Assembly: GCA_028291945.1 (NCBI GenBank)
Contig: JAQGNH010000247.1
Coordinates: forward strand, 392 to 64,391
Direction: 5' to 3'
From: Betaproteobacteria bacterium
GTDB taxonomy: Bacteria > Pseudomonadota > Gammaproteobacteria > Burkholderiales > SG8-41
DNA length: 64,000 nt
Position numbers and translations under genes: made by a program. The notes below the pieces were generated by a model, which was not told where the DNA came from, did no database searches, and saw nothing but the letters and a program-made list of their open reading frames with translations. Shown piece after piece: positions 16,627 through 54,046 of this stretch (its first letter is position 1; each line of letters begins with the position of its first letter).

Positions 16627-17856
16627 ATGGCGACCGCGGTGGCTGCAGCCGGCAAGACCGGCGTAAAGGAGTTCAATTTCAACTGGGTCGGCCAGGACCG
16701 GGCCGGTAAAACCGTGCGCGGCGAAGTGCGTGCCGCCGGCCAAGCTCAGGTGAACGCGATGTTGCGCCGCCAAGGCATCAAAGTCGTAGAGATCAAAAAA
16801 CAAAAAAGGCTCCGCGGTGGCAGAGTCACCGAAAAAGACGTCACGCTGTTCACGCGGCAACTCGCCACGATGCTCAAGTCAGGGGTGCCCCTCCTGCAGG
16901 CATTCGACATCGTAGCAAAGGGTCACGGCAATCCGGCGATGGCTAAGCTGATTTACGCGGTGCGCACGGACGTTGAGACAGGTTCGAGCCTCAAGCAGTC
17001 GTTTGAAAAACATCCACTCTATTTCGAAGCGCTCTTTACGAATTTGATCGGCGCAGGCGAGGCGGCCGGGATACTCGATACCGTGCTGGACCGTCTCGCT
17101 CAGTACAAAGAAAAGATTCTCGCGATCAAGAGCAAGATCAAGGCGGCGTTGTTCTACCCAATCGCAATTCTCGTGGTGGCGTTCGCGATCACGGCGGTCA
17201 TCATGATTTTCGTAATACCGGCTTTCAAACAGGTATTCGCAAACTTCGGGGGCGAGTTGCCCGCGCTCACGCTCGTCGTGATTGCTGTTTCCGATTTCTT
17301 CGTCGAATATTGGTGGGCTATTTTTGGCATTACCGGCGGCAGCGTTTACGCGTTCTTCTATTTCTGGAAGCGGTCGAAGCCGATGCAGATCGTGATGGAC
17401 CGAGTGATGTTGCGAGTGCCGATATTCGGCGACCTGCTCCGGAAATCCGCGATCGCGCGGTGGACGCGCACGCTTTCAACGACCTTTGCTGCGGGTGTTC
17501 CGCTCGTCGAGGCGCTCGATTCCGTTGCGGGTGCCGCTGGCAATTACGTGTACTTCATTGCAACCAAGAAAATCCAGAGTGAAGTGGCCACCGGCGCGAG
17601 CCTCAACTCGTCGATGCAAGGGACCGACGTTTTTCCGAACATGGTCATTCAGATGGTCTCCATCGGCGAAGAGTCCGGTTCGCTCGACACAATGCTCTCT
17701 AAAGTAGCCGACTATTTCGAGCAGGAAGTCGACGACGCAGTGGAGGCACTCTCGAGCCTTATGGAACCGATGATCATGGTTGTGCTCGGCACGCTTATCG
17801 GCGGTCTTGTGATAGCCATGTACCTGCCCATCTTCAAGCTCGGTGGCGTCGTCTGA
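16627..17856 (+). CDS. pilC: Type IV pilus assembly platform protein PilC (GspF family)
   Basis: Two GspF repeats (…FTRQLATMLKSGVPLLQAFDI… and …WTRTLSTTFAAGVPLVEALD…). C-terminus …PIFKLGGVV. Confidence 0.93.
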   Translation: MATAVAAAGKTGVKEFNFNWVGQDRAGKTVRGEVRAAGQAQVNAMLRRQGIKVVEIKKQKRLRGGRVTEKDVTLFTRQLATMLKSGVPLLQAFDIVAKGHGNPAMAKLIYAVRTDVETGSSLKQSFEKHPLYFEALFTNLIGAGEAAGILDTVLDRLAQYKEKILAIKSKIKAALFYPIAILVVAFAITAVIMIFVIPAFKQVFANFGGELPALTLVVIAVSDFFVEYWWAIFGITGGSVYAFFYFWKRSKPMQIVMDRVMLRVPIFGDLLRKSAIARWTRTLSTTFAAGVPLVEALDSVAGAAGNYVYFIATKKIQSEVATGASLNSSMQGTDVFPNMVIQMVSIGEESGSLDTMLSKVADYFEQEVDDAVEALSSLMEPMIMVVLGTLIGGLVIAMYLPIFKLGGVV

Positions 17857-34687: not shown

Positions 34688-36067
34688 TAATGCCGGCACG
34701 CTTCCTATGGAGCCTGCTCCCATCGTCAGCACCACATCGCCATCACGCGCTGCAGCGCGTATCGCTTCAGGCATTTCAGCTACGGTGTCGACAAAAATAG
34801 GCTCGACTTTGCCGTGCACACGGATCGCCCGCGCGAGCGCGCGACCGTCAGCTGCGACGATCGGCTGCTCGCCCGCCGGATAAACTTCGGTGAGCACGAG
34901 TACGTCCGTAGTCGAAAGCACTTTGACGAAGTCCTCGAAGCAATCGCGGGTGCGCGTATAGCGGTGAGGCTGGAAAGCGAGCACCAGACGCCGCCCGGGG
35001 AAAGCGCCACGCGCTGCCGCGAGGGTCGCGGCCATCTCCGCCGGGTGGTGGCCGTAATCGTCGACCAGCAGTAACCGACCGCCGTCTGCAAGCCGGATTT
35101 CCCCACACTGCTGAAACCGCCGACCGACACCTTTAAAGCTCGCGAGCGCTGAGACTATTTTTTCCGGCGCGACGCCGACTTCGAGACCTGCAGCGATCGC
35201 GGCGAGCGCGTTCTGCACGTTGTGCACTCCGGGGAGGTTCAGCGTGACGTCGAACTCGATCGCAGGCGAACCATTTGCCGCACAAACTGCACGGAACGCC
35301 ATCTTTCCGCCTTGCGCTTCGATGTTCACCGCTCGCACTTGCGCTTCGGGCGCGAGACCGTACGTGACGAGCGTCTTGGGCACGCGGGGCGCGATCTCGC
35401 GCACCCCCGCATCATCGATACAGATGATTGCCACGCCATAGAACGGCAGTCGCTGCAGGAAATAGATGAATGACTGTCTCAGTTTGTCGATGGAGTGGTC
35501 GTACGTCGCCATGTGATCGGCGTCGATATTGGTAACGATCGCGAGACACGGCTGCAGATACAGAAACGATGCGTCGGATTCGTCGGCTTCGACGACGATG
35601 AACTCGCCTTTACCGAGCCGCGCGTTCGAGCCGACAGCTTCGACGCGTCCGCCGATGACGAATGTCGGATCGAGCCCCCCTTCCGCGAGCACACTGGCGG
35701 TCAGGCTCGTCGTCGTGGTCTTACCGTGAGTGCCGGCCACCGCAATGCCCTGCTTCAGCCGCATCAACTCAGCGAGCATCAGTGCCCGCGGCACGACGGG
35801 AATCTTCTTTGCGCGAGCCGCCTGTACCTCGGGGTTGTCCTCAGCCACCGCGCTTGAGATTACGACCGCATTCGCACCGGCGATGTTGTCTTCGGAGTGG
35901 CCCTTCGAAATTCTTGCACCAAGCCGCTGAAGATGGCGGGTCACGGGGCTTTCAGAGAGATCGGATCCGCTCACGCGATATTCGAGATTCAGCAGTACTT
36001 CGGCGATGCCGCTCATGCCGACGCCGCCTATGCCAACGAAATGGATGTGCTTGACTTTGTGTCTCAT
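34670..36067 (-). CDS. murC: UDP-N-acetylmuramate--L-alanine ligase
   Basis: [25 protein letters not shown] from ATG 36067. The track ORF starts 16 codons earlier, at 36115. Confidence 0.95.
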
Positions 36068-36167
36068 CGCATCCGCCTGGATCGAGATGAGCGCAAACGG
36101 GAGGCCAGCGTCCAACGCGCGGGCAACGCTGCTGTTGATCCGTTCTCCGCTTTCATCGCCAGGATCT

Positions 36168-37280
36168 TCATGCGGCGAGTCTCATGCAGACTTCCGCGAC
36201 CGTACGCGTTGCGTCCGGCTTGCCCGCAGCTCTCGCCTGTTTCGCCATCGCGAGCAACTTGTCACGCGTGAATTCAGCGAGCAGATCTGCAAGACGCTGC
36301 GGCGTAAGCTCGCTTTGCGGTATGAGCAGCGCGGCGCCGCGCTCTGCGAGGAAGCGCGCGTTTTGCGTCTGATGATCGTCGACTGCTTGCGGAAACGGTA
36401 TCAGGACAGCAGGCACACCCGCGGCTGCCAGCTCGGCAATGGTTGAAGCGCCAGCGCGGCAGATCATCAGGTCGGCCGCAGCGTAGCTTGCCGCCATATC
36501 TTCGATGAACCCAATAATGCTCGCCTCAACGGCTGCCGAAGCGTAGTTCGCGCGCACCGCATCGAGATGAGCGGCGCCCGCCTGGTGTATCACTTCAGGA
36601 CGGACACTCTGTGACAATCGTGCGATCGCTTGCGGAACGACATCGTTCAGCGCTTTCGCACCCTGACTTCCGCCGAGTACGAGCACGCGCAATCGCCCGT
36701 GACGTCCCGCAAAGCGCTGTTCCGGCGGCGCGATCGCTGCGATGTCTGCCCGAACCGGGTTGCCGCTCCACTCGGCCTTGGCCCGCTTGCCGAAAGCCCC
36801 TGGAAAACCGAGGAGCACCTTGTCTGCAACATGACCGAGCACCCGGTTCGTGAGCCCTGCGACTGAATTCTGCTCGTGAATGACCAGCGGCCGATTGAAG
36901 AGACTCGCCATCATGCCGCCGGGGAAAGCAACGTAACCGCCCATACCGAGCACGACGTCCGGACGATGCGCGAAGAGCGCACGCGCGCTCTGCACGAACG
37001 CAATGAGCAGATTGAGCGGCAGCAGCGCAGCACGGACCAGACCTTTGCCGCGCAGGCCGGACATTCGGATCCACGCCATCGTGTAACCCTTAGCCGGCAC
37101 GATGCGGGCCTCCATGCCCGCACGCGAGCCGAGCCATACGACGTTCCAGCCCGCGGCGCGCACGTGCTCTGCTACGGAAAGTGCCGGAAAAATATGGCCA
37201 CCGGTGCCGCCGGCCATGACCATCAGAGTTCGCCGCCCCTGGGCGCTCGGCGTTGGGTCGCGTTGAACAGTATTGATCAT
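36168..37280 (-). CDS. murG: UDP-N-acetylglucosamine--N-acetylmuramyl-(pentapeptide) pyrophosphoryl-undecaprenol GlcNAc transferase
   Basis: …[16 protein letters not shown]…, glycosyltransferase 28 family. Confidence 0.95.
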
Positions 37281-37315
37281 ACTGTCAGGCCCTTCGCGAG
37301 CCTGCCGTTTTGGCT
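37277..37315 (-). other. Orphan duplicate of the ftsW 3' tail, whose TGA overlaps the murG ATG
   Basis: Reads [15 protein letters not shown] against the in-use [14 protein letters not shown] at 37372. 30/35 ungapped nt identity, offset 95 bp. Confidence 0.8.
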
Positions 37316-37371
37316 ACGCCGAAACAGGCAGCCATCAGTTCCAAATTCGCCATGTGCCAACGCTCGCCTAG

Positions 37372-38532
37372 TCATACTGTCAGGCCTTTCGCGAGCTGCC
37401 TGTTTTCCCAATCGACACGCAGAAGTATTGCGAGGGCGGCACACGTTGCCGCGAGGGCGCTGCCGCCGAACGACAGCAGCGGCAGCGTCAGGCCCTTTGT
37501 GGGCAATACGCCCATGTTCACGCCCATATTGATGATCGCCTGCACGCCGATCCACAGGCCGACGCCTTGCGCGACAAGCGATGCGAAATAGCGCTCGAGC
37601 ATGGCCGCGCGGCGCCCTATTGCAAATGCCCGCGCCACGACCCACCCAAACATGAGCACGATCAAAGCGACGCCCACGAAGCCAAGCTCTTCGGCGATGA
37701 CAGCGAGGAGGAAATCCGTGTGCGCCTCCGGAAGGTAAAACAGTTTCTCGACGCTTCCGCCCAGGCCGACACCGAACCATTCTCCACGGCCGAATGCGAT
37801 CAATGCATGCGAGAGCTGATAGCCTTTCCCATACGGATCGGCCCAGGGGTCCATGAAACCGACCACCCGCTGCATGCGATAAGGCGAGATCCAGATCAGC
37901 AGCAGGAAGCCGATGATCAGCATGACGATCAAGCCAGCGAACAGACGCCAGTTCATGCCGCCGAGGAAGAGGATGCCCATCGCAATGACCGTGATGACGG
38001 CGAACGCGCCGAAATCCGGCTCACGCAACAACAGGCCGCCGGTGAGCAGCATCACGAAAAACATCGGCATGAAGCCGCGACGCAGGCTGTGCATGAACGC
38101 GGCCTTGCGTACGGTGTAGTCGGCGGCGTAAAGAACGCAGCACACCTTCATGAGCTCGGAAGGCTGGAAGTTCGCGACATACAGCGAGATCCAGCGCCGA
38201 CTGCCGTTCACTTCGCGTCCGATGCCGGGCACGAGCACGAGCATGAGGAACGCGAGCGCAACGACGAAAAGGTAAGGCGCAGCTTGTTGCCACAGCCGGG
38301 TCGGCACCTGGAACGCGACGACCGCGAACACGAGGGCGATAGCAACAAAAAACGTGTGACGCACGAGATAGTACGTCGGCTGATAGCCCGTGCTGCGCCC
38401 GGCTTCGGCAATAGCGATCGACGAGGAATAGACCATCACCACACCCAGCGCGAGCAGCAGGATCGTGCACCACACGAGAGGGACGTCGTACTCGGCGACC
38501 GACGCGCGCTTCTTGCTCTCGCGGTAATACAT
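37372..38532 (-). CDS. ftsW: Cell division protein FtsW (SEDS family)
   Basis: Start [21 protein letters not shown] at 38532. Polytopic, …[21 protein letters not shown]… The track ORF adds 37 spurious aa overlapping murD. Confidence 0.93.
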
Positions 38533-38540
38533 GGCCTGGC

Positions 38541-39941
38541 TCACGGCAGGCGTCCTTCCTCTGTCGCTGCGAGAGCCTTCACGGCGGCAACAAAGACCTG
38601 AGCGCGGTGCACGTAACTCGTGAACATGTCGTAGCTCGCACACGCGGGAGACAACAGCACGGCATCTCCCGTACGGCTCTCGCTGTAGGCGGCTTGCACC
38701 GCCTCTTCCAACGTCGAAGCGTGCAGCACGCGAACGCCTGAACCGGTCAGCACGTGCTCGATCTGCGGTGCATCGCGCCCGATCAACACCACTGCGCGCG
38801 CATGAGTAGATATTGCTCGGGTGAGAGGCGAAAAGTTCTGCCCTTTGCCGTCTCCCCCGGCGATGAGCACGACGGGTACGGTCATGCCGTTCAGCGCGGC
38901 AACCGTCGCACCGACATTGGTGCCCTTGGAATCATCGTAGAACGTGATGCCGCGCACCTCTGCAACTTTTTCGAGCCGGTGCGGTAAGCCCCGAAAGCGC
39001 CGCAGGCCTTCGAGCATAGTGCTCTCAGGCATTCCGATCGCATCGCAGAGCGCCAGTGCCGCGAGCGCGTTTGCAGCGTTGTGCAAGCCGGCGACCGGCA
39101 GCTCGTCGATGGGCATCAACGTGTCGCCACCGCGGAGGAGCATCGAATGGCCCGAGACGCCCCAGTCGTGATCGTTTGCCGGCGCGTCAAGACCAAAGGT
39201 GGTGGCGTGCTTCCCGGGACGGGCCATGCGCATGCTCCACGCATCCTGTCGGTTCAACACCTGCACACCGGCGCCTGCGAACACGCGTGCTTTCGCATCG
39301 GCGTATTCGTCCATGCCGTCGTATCGATCGAGGTGATCTTCAGTCACGTTGAGCACGGTGGCTGCGTCTGCGCGCAGGCTGGACGTGCTTTCAAGCTGAA
39401 AGCTAGAGAGCTCCAGCACGAATACATCCGGCATCGCTTTGCCGTTTTCGATTTCGGTCAGGGCATCCAGTACCGGCAATCCGATGTTTCCGGCCACAAT
39501 CGTCGCTCGTCCGCTAACGCGCGAAACTTCACCTGCCATTGCGGTCACGGTGCTCTTACCGTTCGAGCCCGTGATCGCAACGACCTGCGGCCTTGCCCTC
39601 GATTGTCGGGCGGCAACATCGTCGAGGGTGCCCGCGAACATCTCGACATCGCCCACGACAGGGACACCGCGTCGAGTCGCTCCCGCTATTGATGCTTCGC
39701 GACGATCGACTCCAGGACTGATTGCGATGACATCAGCGCGCGCGAAATCACGCTCGCTGAAGGGGCCGGTCGAAATCGGCACGTCCGGCGACTCCGTTTC
39801 GAGCGTGCGTTTGTGTGGTGGATGCGCGCGGCTGTCAGCGACCCTAACTCGCGCACCGTGACGCACGAGCCACCGGGTCATCGACAGACCTGTGTCACCG
39901 AGTCCGAGCACCAGCACGTTCCTGTCTTTCCAATCCAGCAT
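38541..39941 (-). CDS. murD: UDP-N-acetylmuramoylalanine--D-glutamate ligase
   Basis: …[12 protein letters not shown]…, …[10 protein letters not shown]… (Mur ligase P-loop). Confidence 0.95.
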
Positions 39942-40002
39942 CCTTAAACCACGTCATAAGCGGTAAGCCGTTTCATGCGTCCGACGGCTCATGGTTCACG
40001 AC

Positions 40003-40083
40003 TCACCGCAGCTTCAGCGTCGACAAGCCGATTAGCACCAACATCATCGAAATGATCCAGAAGCGCACGGGCTGGTTTTGGCT
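40003..40083 (-). other. Orphan duplicate of the mraY 3' tail in the mraY-murD spacer
   Basis: Translates to [25 protein letters not shown]. The last 21 aa are identical to those of MraY, which ends at 40163. 11 codons differ and all are synonymous. Offset 160 bp. Confidence 0.85.
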
Positions 40084-40162
40084 CCGGCCGGCCGACACAC
40101 CACGCTCGACCTTAACTTGCTTCGCAAGTTAGCCTTCACCGAAACCAAGTTGTCGTGCACTA

Positions 40163-41248
40163 TCATCTGAGCTTCAGTGTAGAAAGACCTATCAGCACTA
40201 ACATCATTGAGATGATCCAGAAGCGCACGACAACTTGGTTTTCCTTCCATCCTTTGAGCTCATAGTGGTGATGCAGCGGCGCCATTCGGAAAATGCGTTT
40301 GCCCGTGAGCTTGAAGGACGCGACCTGCAGCATCACCGACAAAGTCTCCACGACAAACACGCCACCCATCACCAGCAGCACGATTTCCTGCCTCACGATC
40401 ACGGCCATGGTCCCAAGCGCTGCGCCAAGCGCGAGCGCACCGACGTCACCCATGAAGACTTCCGCTGGATAGGCGTTGAACCATAGGAACGCGAGACCCG
40501 CGCCTGCCAATGCACCGCAGATCACTGCAAGCTCGCTCGCGCCAGGGATATAGGGGAAATTGAGATATTTCGAGAAGACGGCGTGACCGGCGACGTACGC
40601 AAATACGCCGAGCGCGCTGCCGATCATGACGGTCGGCATGATCGCAAGGCCATCGAGCCCATCCGTGAGGTTGACGGCATTGCTCGTGCCGACTATGACG
40701 AAATAGGTCATCACGATGAAACCTATCCAGCCGAGCGGATACGCCACCTGTTTGAAGAAGGGGACGATGAATGCCGTCTGAGCGGGCAGGTTCGTGGAAA
40801 ACGCGATATACCACGCCGCAGTGACGCCGAATACCGACTGCCAGAAGAACTTGGTGCGCGCGGAAAGTCCTTTGGGATTGCGGTGTACGACTTTTCGGTA
40901 ATCGTCGATCCAGCCGATCGCGCCGAAAGCCACTGTCACCCACAGAACGACCCATACGAATCGGTTACTCAGGTCCGCCCACAGTAGCGTGGTCACCACC
41001 ACGGAAACGAGGATCAGTGCGCCACCCATCGTCGGCGTACCGGCTTTCGTGAGGTGGCTCTGGGGACCATCGCTGCGCACGGCCTGCCCTATTTTGTATG
41101 CCGTGAGCTTGCGGATCATCGCCGGGCCGACGACGAATGAAAGCACGAGCGCAGTCAGGCACGCGAGCACTGCGCGCAACGTGATGTAGTTGAACACGTT
41201 GAAAGCGCGGATATCCTTCCCCAACAGCTGCGCGAGCTCTAAGAGCAT
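40163..41248 (-). CDS. mraY: Phospho-N-acetylmuramoyl-pentapeptide transferase
   Basis: …NVFNYITLR…, …[10 protein letters not shown]…, …[12 protein letters not shown]…. Confidence 0.97.
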
Positions 41249-41272
41249 CGTGAACTCCCGACGGGAATACGG

Positions 41273-41301
41273 GATGAATGCGGAATACGGAATGAAAACC
41301 G
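41273..41301 (-). repeat. GAATG-rich repeat element, copy B, 24 nt upstream of the mraY ATG
   Basis: Forward gatgaatgcggaatacggaatgaaaaccg. See copy A at 6306-6341. Confidence 0.6.
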
Positions 41302-41333
41302 CATGGCACGTGTCACGTGAGTGGTTTTACTCA

Positions 41334-42716
41334 TCATTCGCCGTTTGTCATTTCCAACGCGTTTACCACGCGTTCCATCTTCATGAAGCGTGAACCTTTC
41401 ACGAGCACTGTCACGTCAGGCGCGAGCGCATCCTGAAGATCTTCAAGCAGATCTTCGATGCGCGTGAAATGCTTGGCGTCAGCGCCAAACGCCTTGGTGG
41501 CCTCGGCCGAGTTCGCACCCAGCGCCAGCATGCGGTCGAGACGCGCTTCTTTAGCGACGGCACCCACTTCTGCGTGCAGGCGCGGCGCGTCAGGACCGAG
41601 CTCGCCCATATCACCGAACACGAGAATTTTGCGCCCGGGCGCCTGCGCCAGTACCGAGATCGCTGCACGTACGGACTCGGGGTTGGCGTTATACGTGTCG
41701 TCGATCAGTACAGCCCCCTTGCGGCCACGCTTTCTCTGAAGGCGGCCTTTGATTCCTGAAAACCGCCCGAGCCCTGCTGCAATCACGTTCAGCGGGATAT
41801 CGAGCGCCGTTGCAGCTGCAGCGGCAGCTAGCGCATTGCGAACGTTGTGTACCCCGGGCGCACCGAGCTGCACGTTTGCTTCACCGCTGGAATGTCGCAA
41901 TACGATATCGCTGTCGAGCTCACGTAGCCTGAAGCTGCCTGTTACGGCAGCAGCGTGCTCTAGGCCAAAGTCAACGCACGGCCGCGATTTCGTGAGCTCG
42001 CGCCACAGCGGAGCGTAACGATCGTCGGCGTTGAAGACGGCGGTCGCTTCGGGCCGTAGAGATTCAAAAATTTCGCCTTTGGCGCGTGCGATCGCTTCCT
42101 CCGATCCGAGGAATTCAATGTGGGCACGCCCGGCGTTCGTCACGAGTGCTACGTCCGGATCGGCGAGATCGGCAAGGTAACGAATCTCGCCCGCGTGATT
42201 CATCCCCATCTCGATAACGGCATAACGGTGCACCGGGGTGAGCTCGAGCAGCATCAACGGCAGGCCGATGTCATTGTTGAGATTTCCGCGCGTCGCAAGC
42301 ACCGGGTCTTCAGCCGCTCCCCCTGCATCGCGCGACGCGTGACGAAGAATCGCAGCAAGCATCTCCTTGACCGTCGTTTTGCCGCTGCTGCCCGTAAGCG
42401 CGACGAGCGGCATTCTGAAACGGCTGCGCCAGTGTGCCGCAAGGCGGCCCAGCCCAAGGCGAGTATCGTCGACGACGATCAGCGGCAGGCGCTCTGCGGC
42501 CTGCAGCGAAAAGGCGGTGTCGACCATCGCGGCCGCCGCGCCTGCACCTGCTGCGGCCCGGAGAAAGCCGTGGCCGTCATAGCGCTCGCCGCGCAGCGCC
42601 ACGAAAAGATTTCCTCGTTTGAGGGTGCGCGTATCCGTGCTCACCCCGGAAAAATCGACGTCGCCGCCAACGAGTCTGGCGTCTACGGCGTTCGCGGCCT
42701 CACTGAGCCGCATCAT
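41334..42716 (-). CDS. murF: UDP-N-acetylmuramoyl-tripeptide--D-alanyl-D-alanine ligase
   Basis: …LTGSSGKTTVKEM…, Mur ligase family. Overlaps the murE stop. Confidence 0.95.
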   Translation of the reverse strand: MMRLSEAANAVDARLVGGDVDFSGVSTDTRTLKRGNLFVALRGERYDGHGFLRAAAGAGAAAAMVDTAFSLQAAERLPLIVVDDTRLGLGRLAAHWRSRFRMPLVALTGSSGKTTVKEMLAAILRHASRDAGGAAEDPVLATRGNLNNDIGLPLMLLELTPVHRYAVIEMGMNHAGEIRYLADLADPDVALVTNAGRAHIEFLGSEEAIARAKGEIFESLRPEATAVFNADDRYAPLWRELTKSRPCVDFGLEHAAAVTGSFRLRELDSDIVLRHSSGEANVQLGAPGVHNVRNALAAAAAATALDIPLNVIAAGLGRFSGIKGRLQRKRGRKGAVLIDDTYNANPESVRAAISVLAQAPGRKILVFGDMGELGPDAPRLHAEVGAVAKEARLDRMLALGANSAEATKAFGADAKHFTRIEDLLEDLQDALAPDVTVLVKGSRFMKMERVVNALEMTNGE

Positions 42717-49160: not shown

Positions 49161-49264
49161 CGGTGAACGAACAGAGGGAAACGCAGGTTTCCCTCCGTAA
49201 CCTCGCTCCGCGAGGCGGGCCGGTGAACGAACAGAGGGAAACCCAGGTTTCCCTCCGTAACCTC
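49161..49264. repeat. Two copies of a 44-bp hairpin-containing (REP-like) unit, 60-bp period
   Basis: cggtgaacgaacagagggaaac[g/c]caggtttccctccgtaacctc at 49161-49204 and 49221-49264 (43/44 identical). Each copy has a 9-bp stem, gagggaaac/gtttccctc. Confidence 0.85.

Positions 49265-53091: not shown

Positions 53092-54046
<955 letters not shown>

Follow-up and report, generated by a model that had tools for sequence, protein, structure and literature searches.

A short hairpin-forming element, apparently mobile and widespread, at the duplicated gene tails of mraY and ftsW

The window analyzed here, the whole stretch of 64 kb, carries on its reverse strand (where all of its features described below also lie) an intact mraY (40163..41248; 361 aa; Pfam Glycos_transf_4), murD (38541..39941), an intact ftsW (37372..38532; 386 aa) and, downstream, murG (36168..37280). 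An initial annotation had reported that the tails of mraY and ftsW are each duplicated. Both duplications are real, and the 64 kb contain no other duplicated tail. The mraY repeat pairs positions 40003-40069 with 40163-40229 (67 nt, 81% identical; self-blastn E-value 5e-11) and the ftsW repeat pairs 37277-37311 with 37372-37406 (35 nt, 86% identical; E-value 0.002). The inserts comprise 174 nt (mraY) and 95 nt (ftsW), with no gene inside either. An assembly artefact was rejected because the same junctions recur, at 99.6-99.9% identity, in contigs of nine metagenomes and in one NCBI MAG contig (at least 10 same-species contigs). In both genes the in-use tail is the upstream copy, which completes the gene; with the downstream copy, or orphan tail, the junction with the next gene is preserved in its native form. 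murD lies between the two insertions, is part of neither and is not foreign.

At the mraY scar, the target site GGAAAACC (40238..40245) spans the codons K-E-N-Q, and the duplication starts at its AAAA (40243..40240). Copy A, the in-use tail from AAAA through the stop TGA (40163..40243), is contiguous with the mraY body and provides its last 27 codons. It is followed by two features of the general anatomy described below, a filler n (TAGT, 40159..40162) and an inverted copy a' (GCACGACAACTTGG, 40145..40158). The latter inverts the first 14 nt after the AAAA of copy A, forms part of 20-nt arms (95% complementary, 60-nt loop) and extends the terminal stem of the adjoining sequence, which we denote E. 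This full-length E core of 69 nt (TTTCGGTGAAGGCTAAC-TTGCGAAGCAA-GTTAAGG-...-GGCCGGAGCCAAAA, 40076..40144) scores 69.5 bits against a covariance model whose training alignment included this copy. Copy B, the orphan tail (40003..40079), encodes 26 residues and is followed by the native mraY-murD spacer. The 13 differences between the two tail copies are of mixed types and all synonymous, and the 30 C-terminal residues of MraY are identical in relatives without the insert.

Such relatives, namely the sister species (L007), L094 and L091-L093, have a single mraY tail. Over 66 nt, the single tail of L007 differs from the orphan tail at 4 positions and from the in-use tail at 11, while the in-use and orphan tails differ at 13. 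No de novo insertion was seen; judged from these sequences, the polymorphism looks like loss of the insert, and the mraY copy was probably lost from the sister species by recombination between the tail copies. The insert opens a small ORF (40044..40166) whose ATG overlaps the mraY stop (ATGA). In the window this ORF has a frameshift in GGCCGGCCGG and encodes 40 aa. Of the 10 same-species contigs, 9 also have it frameshifted, and in L012 it is interrupted. In L003, one extra base yields an intact ORF of 54 aa that ends with the orphan tail. The mraY copy is predicted to fold with -98 kcal/mol over 271 nt (z = -2.6).

The ftsW scar has the target GGGAAAAC (37402-37409). Copy A (AAAA CAGGCAGC...GTATGA, 37372..37406), one half of the direct repeat, comprises the last 11 codons of ftsW. 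The filler (37333..37371) encodes the N-terminal part of a bridging ORF and, by eye, weakly resembles the head of MurG. Next to it, a' (GCTGCCTG, 37325..37332) inverts CAGGCAGC within 11-nt arms that are 100% complementary around a 62-nt loop. E is represented by a 17-nt remnant, TTTCGGCGTAGCCAAAA (37308..37324), which has both E termini; 46 internal model positions are deleted between CGNAG repeats. This remnant scores 20.1 bits (E-value 5e-4) against the covariance model, built from unrelated copies, and the fold of the ftsW copy in the window is not significant (z = -0.6). In copy B, the orphan tail (37277..37311), the TGA overlaps with the ATG of murG, this overlap being the native junction; because copy B precedes murG, the native start context of murG is kept. 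The bridging ORF (37277..37375; 32 aa), with ATGA overlaps with both the ftsW stop and the murG start, is conserved and open in L007. Comparison of the window with L007 revealed two species-specific substitutions common to both ftsW copies and one paralogue-specific site that was retained; the copies thus appear to evolve in concert. Full-length E was identified at the identical ftsW site in six other loci (L014, L016, L028, L048, L059, and L060), and in L041 E is reversed at the ftsW|murG segment and the murG head is duplicated.

The E core has the form TTTCGG-YGNAGGCTAAC-hairpin-GTTAAGC-hairpin-GGCCGNAGCC-AAAA and comprises 45-76 nt that make up a three-way-junction palindrome. Its complementary ends (TTTCGGC...GCCAAAA) are inverted repeats that enclose two internal hairpins. 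RNAalifold predicted a three-way junction from the E alignment, with compensatory changes in 12 of 25 pairs, and the flank columns of the terminal stem covary in 38-42 of 91 sequences. The motif CGNAG occurs four times in E, where N varies among A, C, G, and T in the alignment. Unpaired bases of the core are conserved as well, across about 90 sites among the matches listed.

Screening of metagenomes yielded at least 141 E instances with enough flanking sequence, in at least about 90 flank clusters; the search pattern demanded TTT and AAAA ends, and copies with other termini were therefore undetectable. Of 85 related dcw loci, 12 carry the E core at the mraY tail and the ftsW|murG junction. Further contexts among the matches listed include an AccB-like tail and, with E reversed, the head of nuoD, and one copy lies in frame after residue 8 of a Cas9-like protein of 1100 aa. 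Most copies are found within ORF termini, abutting them, or in frame. Many sites, including those at ftsW, mraY, and nuoD, look orthologous across lineages, so there are fewer independent E events than copies. E had no match in Rfam, Pfam, plasmid and phage collections, or the literature searched. Rfam covariance models returned nothing relevant at an E-value of 1 or below for positions 36000-42000 of the window, and nothing at 0.1 or below for five E-bearing loci. Neither a transposase, reverse transcriptase, or recombinase partner nor a long autonomous version with E ends was found in 1.8 Mb of loci. A second core, F, which is unrelated to E, was seen at duplicated murC heads.

The anatomy of the insertions is constant and can be written as G[AAAA a b] n a' E [AAAA a b]; whole-unit tandem arrays also occur. 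Among the matches listed, an upstream direct copy of the right flank was present in 72 of 143 E instances. In these 72, from which a target consensus of G-AAAA was derived, A occupies positions -4 to -1 ahead of the native copy in 59-64 cases, and G occupies -5 in 40. Spacing between copies is 89-167 nt for most, and longer periods (178-290 nt) stem mainly from tandem arrays. The host stretch duplicated after AAAA ranges from about 5 nt (in L135) to 100 nt. The inverted copy a' repeats the start of this stretch over 6-20 nt and adjoins the 5' end of E, and the filler before it comprises 4-30 nt of unrelated sequence for which no local template was found. Given this constant anatomy, the orphan tails are the downstream target copies. 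The duplication usually ends at the host stop codon or, for reverse insertions, at the start codon, and in clean cases its boundary and the ORF end are the same. Such a boundary would not be expected of a blind staggered cut; gene conversion restricted to the coding part is the only explanation that we can offer.

The shared motifs pointed out in the initial annotation can now be placed within this anatomy. The in-use tails indeed start at GGAAAAC (gttttcc at 37402-37408 and 40239-40245), ccgaaac lies at 37319 and 40139, and the inverted junction copies are those described above. The motif GTTTTGGCT, said to precede both orphan tails, is present at 40075-40083, but its other copy lies at 37307-37315, one base from the position first given; the motif matched twice where 0.35 matches were expected, and 7 of 100 shuffles had two or more. 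The motif AGG(T)CGAGCGT is likewise present in both spacers but is attributable to chance, as 28% of shuffles align equally well; its two occurrences fall in non-homologous parts of the proposed anatomy. The apparent bracketing of murD-ftsW by the scars is incidental, given that GAAAAC occurs close to the end of each gene, in the codons for KENQ (MraY) and WENR (FtsW). Nor are the genes really uncoupled, since the 32-aa ORF bridges ftsW|murG with ATGA overlaps at both ends.

E is kept translatable. Core lengths are 3-periodic, with a ratio of 72 : 38 : 16 for lengths of 1, 2, and 0 mod 3, and the tail frame of E contains no stop in 36 of 45 insertions as compared to 25 of 90 for the other two frames. 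Because E duplicates the gene tail, essential cell-wall genes stay intact; because no stop interrupts the tail frame of the insert, ribosomes can be relayed via the small ORF to the native stop/start overlap.

Collectively, these observations argue strongly that both scars are insertions of E, a short, non-autonomous, hairpin-forming mobile element, and we regard this as very probable. The suggestion in the initial annotation that a small insertion element targets GAAAAC near gene 3' ends and brings or regenerates a replacement tail is in essence supported by the core in at least about 90 flank contexts, the G-AAAA target, and the flanking duplication. E is apparently a small, widespread mobile DNA element that has not been described. 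As to its mode of movement, which we infer from sequence, a single-stranded copy of E may be the moving form. Its 3'-terminal AAAA would pair with a nicked TTTT of the target, which would then prime E copying. The self-complementary ends of E could snap back, with synthesis running on into the flank to give a', and a second staggered break followed by fill-in would leave the tail duplicated. Recombination between tail copies can remove the insert precisely. More tentatively, E and core F might represent an undescribed class of bacterial mobile elements defined by target-primed snap-back copying at a short A-run and by long, variable duplications that rebuild the gene end; we consider this broader reading possible but somewhat doubtful. 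If true, a selfish element could colonize the termini of essential, translationally coupled genes, and recombination between copies would allow its scarless removal.

Two of the alternatives do without such an element, and both had been offered in the initial annotation. Replacement of the native genes by a foreign or allelic mraY'-murD-ftsW segment, whose imprecise ends left a duplicated tail on each side, might account for the in-use mraY tail, which has 11 lineage-specific synonymous changes in 66 nt where about 4 are expected (gene-wide divergence of 6.4%) and which ranks in the bottom 2.8% of 21-codon windows for codon adaptation. However, the GC3 of this tail (0.62) is average for the cluster, GC3 is 0.67-0.79 across the murF-murG genes with no discontinuity, and murD and ftsW have not diverged further from the sister species than their neighbours (identities: murF 0.868, mraY 0.936, murD 0.866, ftsW 0.922, and murG 0.883). 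The scars are also independent, as L007 and L094 have the ftsW scar without the mraY scar, and structures with an identical core occur at dozens of unrelated genes, which makes a foreign patch extremely improbable. We consider it only marginally less improbable that purely local template switching or fold-back at GAAAAC/GTTTTCC quasi-palindromes generated tandem duplications with no mobile element involved. That a' inverts the adjacent target is consistent with local errors, as are the natural partners GGGAAAAC (ftsW) and TTTTTCCGG (murG HIFP), which lie about 130 nt apart, and the weak likeness, by eye, of the ftsW-scar filler to the MurG head. Yet the filler has no local template, and local templating cannot produce a 45-76 nt core common to about 90 sites in both orientations. 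Template switching on its own cannot account for a 60-nt core conserved across about 90 unrelated sites, but it may have a part in the insertion step, where fold-back synthesis is plausible since the inverted copy of the flank would result from it.

The remaining alternatives concern function. The small ORFs could be genes of functional microproteins, for example ones that mimic transmembrane helix 10 of MraY or the tail of FtsW, that are inherited vertically and evolve in concert with the host tail. They are open in most lineages, their ATG starts lie beside the host stop, E lengths are 3-periodic, and gene callers annotate them as hypothetical proteins of 37-76 aa. On the other hand, at least two reading frames of E are used, as is its reverse orientation, and the resulting peptides are unrelated; the C-terminal part of the ORFs changes with every host gene and none matches a Pfam family; the mraY-site ORF is broken in the window, in 9 of 10 same-species contigs, and in L012; and the covarying stems suggest that what is conserved is nucleic-acid structure. 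We therefore view microproteins as unlikely. Slightly less unlikely, and compatible with a mobile origin, is a domesticated cis-acting RNA, in which the three-way junction within polycistronic dcw transcripts would act in processing, stability, or attenuation and so set the expression ratios mraY:murD and ftsW:murG. The strong fold of the mraY copy (z = -2.6), the covarying stems, and the persistence of E copies at the same dcw junctions in distant lineages are consistent with such a role, whereas the 17-nt ftsW remnant (z = -0.6), the existence of reverse-orientation copies, the lack of an Rfam match, and a sister species that does without the mraY copy argue against it.

Insertion of a mobile element E being the preferred reading, it can be compared with known systems. 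REP/REPIN elements (moved by RAYT, Y1 HUH) and MITEs resemble E as abundant, non-autonomous palindromes of tens of nt that sometimes form tandem arrays and are presumably moved in trans. REPs are extragenic and are marked by an invariant GTAG or CGTC tetranucleotide (PMC3733652). E was not assigned to the REP/REPIN-RAYT system, as it has CGNAG with a variable N rather than GTAG/CGTC at the foot of a 20-40 nt palindrome and mostly lies in or abuts ORF ends; neither a RAYT gene nor a parent insertion sequence was seen in the loci. The ends of E (TTTCGGC/GCCAAAA) are inverted repeats, and no long element with such ends was found in 1.8 Mb of loci. A MITE was rejected since E produces variable duplications, from about 5 nt in L135 to about 90 nt with copy-to-copy periods of 89-167 nt, plus a' instead of short target duplications of fixed length (2-10 bp). 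Integron attC sites (R'' RYYYAAC ... R' GTTRRRY, 57-141 nt, located in cassette arrays or beside intI) were also rejected, as GGCTAAC...GTTAAGC in E, compared by eye, fits the boxes no more than roughly and is about 25-35 nt long; cassette ORFs and intI were absent from the E loci. A diversity-generating retroelement does not fit the differences between the mraY copies, which are mixed in type, all synonymous, and not confined to template adenines, and no reverse transcriptase was found in the dcw cluster.

Integrative elements such as e14 in icd, or islands in tRNA and tmRNA genes, leave the gene ending in one tail copy with an orphan copy at the far end of the insert, and recombination between the copies excises the insert precisely. 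Unlike E, where the insert is 95-174 nt and the tail derives from the target itself, these elements span kilobases, encode an integrase, and bring their own tail copy; an integrase-mediated element was rejected for the 95- and 174-nt inserts, which contain no gene. CRISPR spacer integration and the long direct repeats of the IS1549 type involve short inserted DNA, staggered cuts, and duplication of tens of bp of target. E differs in that it has no CRISPR context or Cas1, the duplicated length is variable, and the inserted DNA is a conserved element. In non-LTR retrotransposons and SINEs, an A-rich 3' end merges with an A-rich target, duplications are variable, and untemplated bases at the 5' junction as well as inverted 5' segments (twin priming) occur; to our knowledge, target-primed elements of this type have not been described in bacteria. 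E is like SINEs in anatomy only (AAAA end, variable duplication, filler, and inverted 5' flank) and ends in exactly AAAA rather than in a poly(A) tail.

Rickettsia palindromic elements (RPE) and coding palindromes share with E their short length, their in-frame location in coding regions where they are tolerated or translated, and a spread independent of host gene function. The 3-periodic lengths of E, its open tail frame, and its copy in the Cas9-like ORF are those of an in-frame palindrome compatible with translation. Compared by features, E differs from RPE in its G-AAAA target, its three-way junction rather than a simple hairpin, its long direct duplication with an inverted flank copy, its location mostly at ORF termini, where it creates separate, coupled mini-ORFs, and its host taxa, which are Betaproteobacteria/Burkholderiales-type MAGs.

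The window comes from an uncultured Burkholderiales-type betaproteobacterium. Ten contigs, nine from JGI metagenomes and one from an NCBI MAG (GCA_034668005.1), match it at 99.6-99.9% identity, and the closest MurD in the GTDB species representatives reaches just 69%. The dcw cluster on the minus strand comprises ftsI, murE, murF, mraY (40163-41248), murD (38541-39941), ftsW (37372-38532), murG (36168-37280), murC, and ddl. The tail duplications that the initial annotation described at mraY and ftsW were borne out, with no others within the 64 kb. The mraY tail copies (67 nt) are 81% identical and all 13 of their 13 differences are synonymous. The ftsW tail copies (35 nt) are 86% identical, and the downstream copy adjoins murG with the native ATGA overlap retained. 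Since the junctions are identical across all same-species contigs, these scars are not assembly artefacts. The motifs GTTTTGGCT and ccgaaac and the GGAAAAC start of the in-use tails were recovered where they had been reported (one coordinate was off by one), and the inverted copy of the tail start is real at both scars, but a fourth supposedly shared motif, AGG(T)CGAGCGT, occurs at chance level.

Self-comparison of 80 dcw loci retrieved with MurD revealed that many uncultured Betaproteobacteria carry local direct repeats at these junctions, and the mraY-murD and ftsW-murG inserts of those relatives have a conserved core, here termed E, in common with the window. Its consensus is TTTCGG-YGNAGGCTAAC-hairpin-GTTAAGC-(second hairpin)-GGCCGNAGCC-AAAA, the two ends of which are the GTTTCGG and AGCCAAAAC motifs of the initial annotation. 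At the mraY site (minus strand), the in-use tail (copy A, 40243..40163) is followed by a filler, n (40162..40159), an inverted copy of the tail start, a' (40158..40145), a complete 69-nt E (40144..40076), and the orphan tail (copy B, 40079..40003). At the ftsW site (minus strand), copy A (37406..37372), n (37371..37333), and a' (37332..37325) precede an E reduced to its fused termini, TTTCGGCGTAGCCAAAA (37324..37308), and copy B (37311..37277). Full-length E occupies the ftsW site in six related loci (L014, L016, L028, L048, L059, L060).

A covariance model of E built from 91 copies scored the ftsW remnant at 20.1 bits (E-value = 5e-4) and aligned it as E with the interior deleted. Scanning the window with this model returned no further credible match beyond the two scars; a candidate at 17348-17458 (E-value = 0.016) was taken as chance, since it is contained in a 409-aa ORF and lacks a duplication. 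RNAalifold predicted a three-way junction with compensatory changes in 12 of 25 pairs, and covariation in the flank columns arises from a' mirroring each target. Four CGNAG motifs were noted in the E alignment, with hairpin loops of the GCGNAGC type. The GCGNAGC sequence forms unusually stable DNA mini-hairpins, and these loops hint at single-stranded DNA as the active form of E.

Among 85 related dcw loci, the covariance model yielded 15 matches spread over 12 loci, each located either at the mraY tail or at the ftsW|murG junction. Metagenome contigs were scanned with a 26-base-specified pattern and the instances pooled with the other loci examined, giving at least 141 instances of E with sufficient flank in at least about 90 different flank contexts. 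These include ftsW and mraY tails, the nuoD head (with E reversed), an AccB-like tail, and many other gene ends. In one metagenome locus (L135 22-3320), E is inserted in frame after residue 8 of a 1100-aa Cas9-like protein, identified as such from its RuvC-I motif only (MGDKTPQN|EVSVQANVSAANVKARSAGRSQ|NLTFGFDIGIASVGWC...), with AAAAC alone duplicated, which indicates that E can persist also as an internal peptide insertion. In a Methyloversatilis-like MAG (L085 2400-2560), E was observed immediately 5' of the MurG core, sharing its frame; no ATG stands ahead of E and there is no tail duplication. No copy of E was found in plasmid, phage, and viral-contig collections, no Rfam family matched E in the window scar region or in five E-bearing loci, and a search of 1.8 Mb of loci for orphan left or right halves found no autonomous version. 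No published description emerged from literature searches using sequence words and concepts, although their coverage was incomplete and ‘undescribed’ is therefore provisional. E represents a widespread, apparently undescribed element family with an unusual insertion anatomy.

That anatomy follows the layout G[AAAA-a-b] n a' [E] [AAAA-a-b] c. Of 143 instances among the matches listed, 72 repeat the right flank in direct orientation upstream; copy-to-copy spacing is mostly 89-167 nt, and longer periods are chiefly tandem arrays. Immediately 5' of this native copy, again among the matches listed, A fills positions -4 through -1 in 59-64 of 72 cases and G occupies position -5 in 40 of 72. The inverted copy a' (6-20 nt) lengthens the terminal stem of E; n measures 4-30 nt, and no local template for it was found. 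The whole unit recurs in tandem in six loci (L104, L113, L134, L148, L169, L202). Arrays of E with two to three or more units, short regular spacers, and periods of 69-170 nt (L110 1-300, L113 4284-4554, L181 1171-1429, L206 5137-5350, L154, L141) superficially resemble CRISPR arrays and probably arose by unequal crossing-over between duplicated flanks.

Three explanations had been proposed for the scars. A foreign mraY'-murD-ftsW patch is rejected by comparison with the sister species: identity to L007 shows no break (murF 0.868, mraY 0.936, murD 0.866, ftsW 0.922, murG 0.883), nor do GC and GC3 along murF-murG. That sister species, represented by L007 and L094 (nucleotide identity about 87-94% per gene), has one mraY tail, separates mraY from murD by 47 nt, and yet retains the ftsW scar, and three more distant relatives (L091-L093) likewise have no mraY insert. 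The scars are therefore independent events. The apparent bracketing of murD-ftsW is a coincidence, as both gene tails happen to contain GAAAAC. A small insertion element, in contrast, is supported by the conserved, structured, and dispersed nature of E, its G-AAAA target, and its target duplication, the length of which varies, and we consider it highly probable that the scars reflect a mobile element with target duplication. Fold-back replication errors do not suffice as a whole explanation and are retained solely as a possible sub-step of insertion.

How such an element inserts can be proposed only tentatively, and target-primed, snap-back copying is one possible, rather doubtful, route. The AAAA of the G-AAAA target merges with the 3' AAAA of E. 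The 3' AAAA of a single-stranded E copy could pair with nicked TTTT, whereupon the target would prime copying of E; the complementary ends of E would then snap back, with synthesis running a few bases into the flank to produce a'. Fill-in after another break some tens of nucleotides away would yield the duplicated tail, and the joint would carry untemplated bases corresponding to n. No enzyme partner for E was identified. In one related locus (L041), E lies in the opposite orientation at the ftsW|murG segment and the murG head is duplicated instead, which implies that the feature acts at the DNA level, independent of gene orientation.

In clean single insertions, the right end of the duplication falls 0-3 nt past the host stop codon (L097, L106, L147, L176, L195, L213, and both window sites), and in reverse insertions its boundary is the start codon (L191, L041). 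Such boundaries are not expected from a blind staggered cut, and neither mRNA ends nor R-loops fit both tail-type and head-type insertions. Some support exists for one account only, in which gene conversion holds the copies together solely where it does no harm in either direction, namely in the coding part, with divergence outside it. Within each of the two species (that of the window and L007), two species-specific substitutions (GCG/GCC and GGC/GGG) are common to both ftsW copies, against ~0.07 such sites expected by chance according to our own estimate, which indicates that gene conversion operates between the copies; a paralogue-specific site (AAA/AAG) is retained in both species.

The mraY copies have a different record. 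Over 66 nt, the orphan tail differs from L007 at 4 positions, the in-use tail from L007 at 11, and the in-use from the orphan tail at 13. These distances fit the tree (in-use,(orphan,L007)), suggesting that the duplication is older than the species split. Most likely, L007 would have lost the insert via recombination between copies, restoring a perfect gene. Alternatively, the in-use copy may have evolved unusually fast. Within 63-66 nt of the in-use tail (40166-40228, minus strand), 11 synonymous changes are lineage-specific, versus about 4 expected. These changes favour rarer codons, with a CAI in the lowest 2.8% of windows and an average GC3, too weak a basis for regarding the tail as recoded or synthetic. 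The excess could stem from the age of the duplication or from selection that disfavours recombination, or pairing, with the orphan copy. A comparable contrast between in-use and orphan tails was seen by eye in L025 and L030.

The inserts are kept translatable. Among the matches listed, the 126 distinct E cores comprise 72 with lengths of 1 mod 3, 38 of 2 mod 3, and 16 of 0 mod 3; the last of these lengths puts GGC-TAA-C into the tail frame. Also among the matches listed, E lacks stops in the frame entering the duplicated tail in 36 of 45 tail-type insertions, versus 25 of 90 for the other two frames. At the ftsW|murG junction, a 32-aa ORF (37277-37375), also open and conserved in L007, has an ATG overlapping the ftsW stop and a TGA overlapping the murG ATG, from which we infer relayed translational coupling. 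The mraY-site ORF is intact (54 aa) and terminates with the orphan tail in the same-species contig L003, and is frameshifted in the window and nine other same-species contigs; the polymorphism lies in a GGCCGGCCGG run (window 40084-40100 vs L003 5400-5415) in which L003 has one extra base. Coupling is not needed at murD, which has its own AAGGA Shine-Dalgarno. A dedicated protein function for E-derived ORFs is unlikely, since the reading of E varies between sites (two frames, and also reverse) and gives unrelated peptides, gene callers label its products ‘hypothetical protein’, and a Pfam search of the small ORFs returned no match.

Several other repeats and small ORFs were observed. At the murG-murC junction (36064-36171, minus strand), a third bridging mini-ORF of the cluster (35 aa) has an ATG overlapping the murG stop and a TGA overlapping the murC ATG; it shows no clear duplication and no core recognisable as E or as the second core F, and may be an old, decayed insertion. 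This core F (...GAGCAGGRAGCAGGGNCCCGNCGC...GCGNCGGGATGCGACCGGCCGC...), is unrelated to E and lies between two murC head copies, duplicated from the ATG to GGCGG, in related loci (L022 9629-9841, L026 9624-9838, L030 9642-9856, L031 9666-10104 with three units in tandem, L039 9713-9915, L048 9863-10075). Together with the first murC head copy, F forms a small ORF with an ATGA overlap at the real murC start; its architecture is like that of E, but its sequence and target differ. Within the 85-nt murF-mraY spacer (41249-41333, minus strand), GGTTTTC precedes a short direct repeat (CATTCCGTATTCCG / CATCCCGTATTCCCG), which is not a copy of E because the spacer of relatives is also ~85 nt. An intergenic REP-like repeat distinct from E (49161-49264) consists of two tandem 44-nt hairpin copies, 98% identical with a 60-nt period (CGGTGAACGAACAGAGGGAAAC.CAGGTTTCCCTCCGTAACCTC), and a direct repeat at 53579/53662, within a coding region (a SIS-domain isomerase by eye), was dismissed as chance.

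If the proposed reading is true, E enlarges the repertoire of bacterial mobile DNA by a new style of insertion, in which an element of ~60 nt is tolerated inside essential operons (dcw, nuo, accB) and even cas9; the host survives insertion in essential operons because the gene end is duplicated and the insert stays translatable. In Burkholderiales-type MAGs (Gallionella, Thiobacillaceae, Propionivibrio, and others), E accounts for a class of puzzling duplicated gene ends and of ‘hypothetical proteins’ 30-80 aa long, and its insertions can yield false pseudogene or fusion calls in annotation. Its sites would offer natural cases of relayed translational coupling, and handles for finding the enzyme are provided by the boundary at ORF ends, the G-AAAA target, and the flank copy attributed to snap-back.

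Among known systems, DGRs, integron attC sites, Xer/dif, Hin hix, and Tn3 inverted repeats each miss a defining feature; by eye, E does not have the attC architecture. Rickettsia palindromic elements are, like E, coding-compatible palindromes. REP/REPIN sequences and MITEs resemble E as abundant non-autonomous palindromes, but E has no GTAG/CGTC tag and is for the most part not extragenic, unlike the former, and has no fixed short target duplication, unlike the latter; a survey of REP sequences (PMC3733652) reported no duplications. Integrative elements of the e14/icd type likewise pair a regenerated tail with an orphan tail, but E carries no integrase. The insertion steps proposed for E would resemble the target-primed insertion of non-LTR elements.
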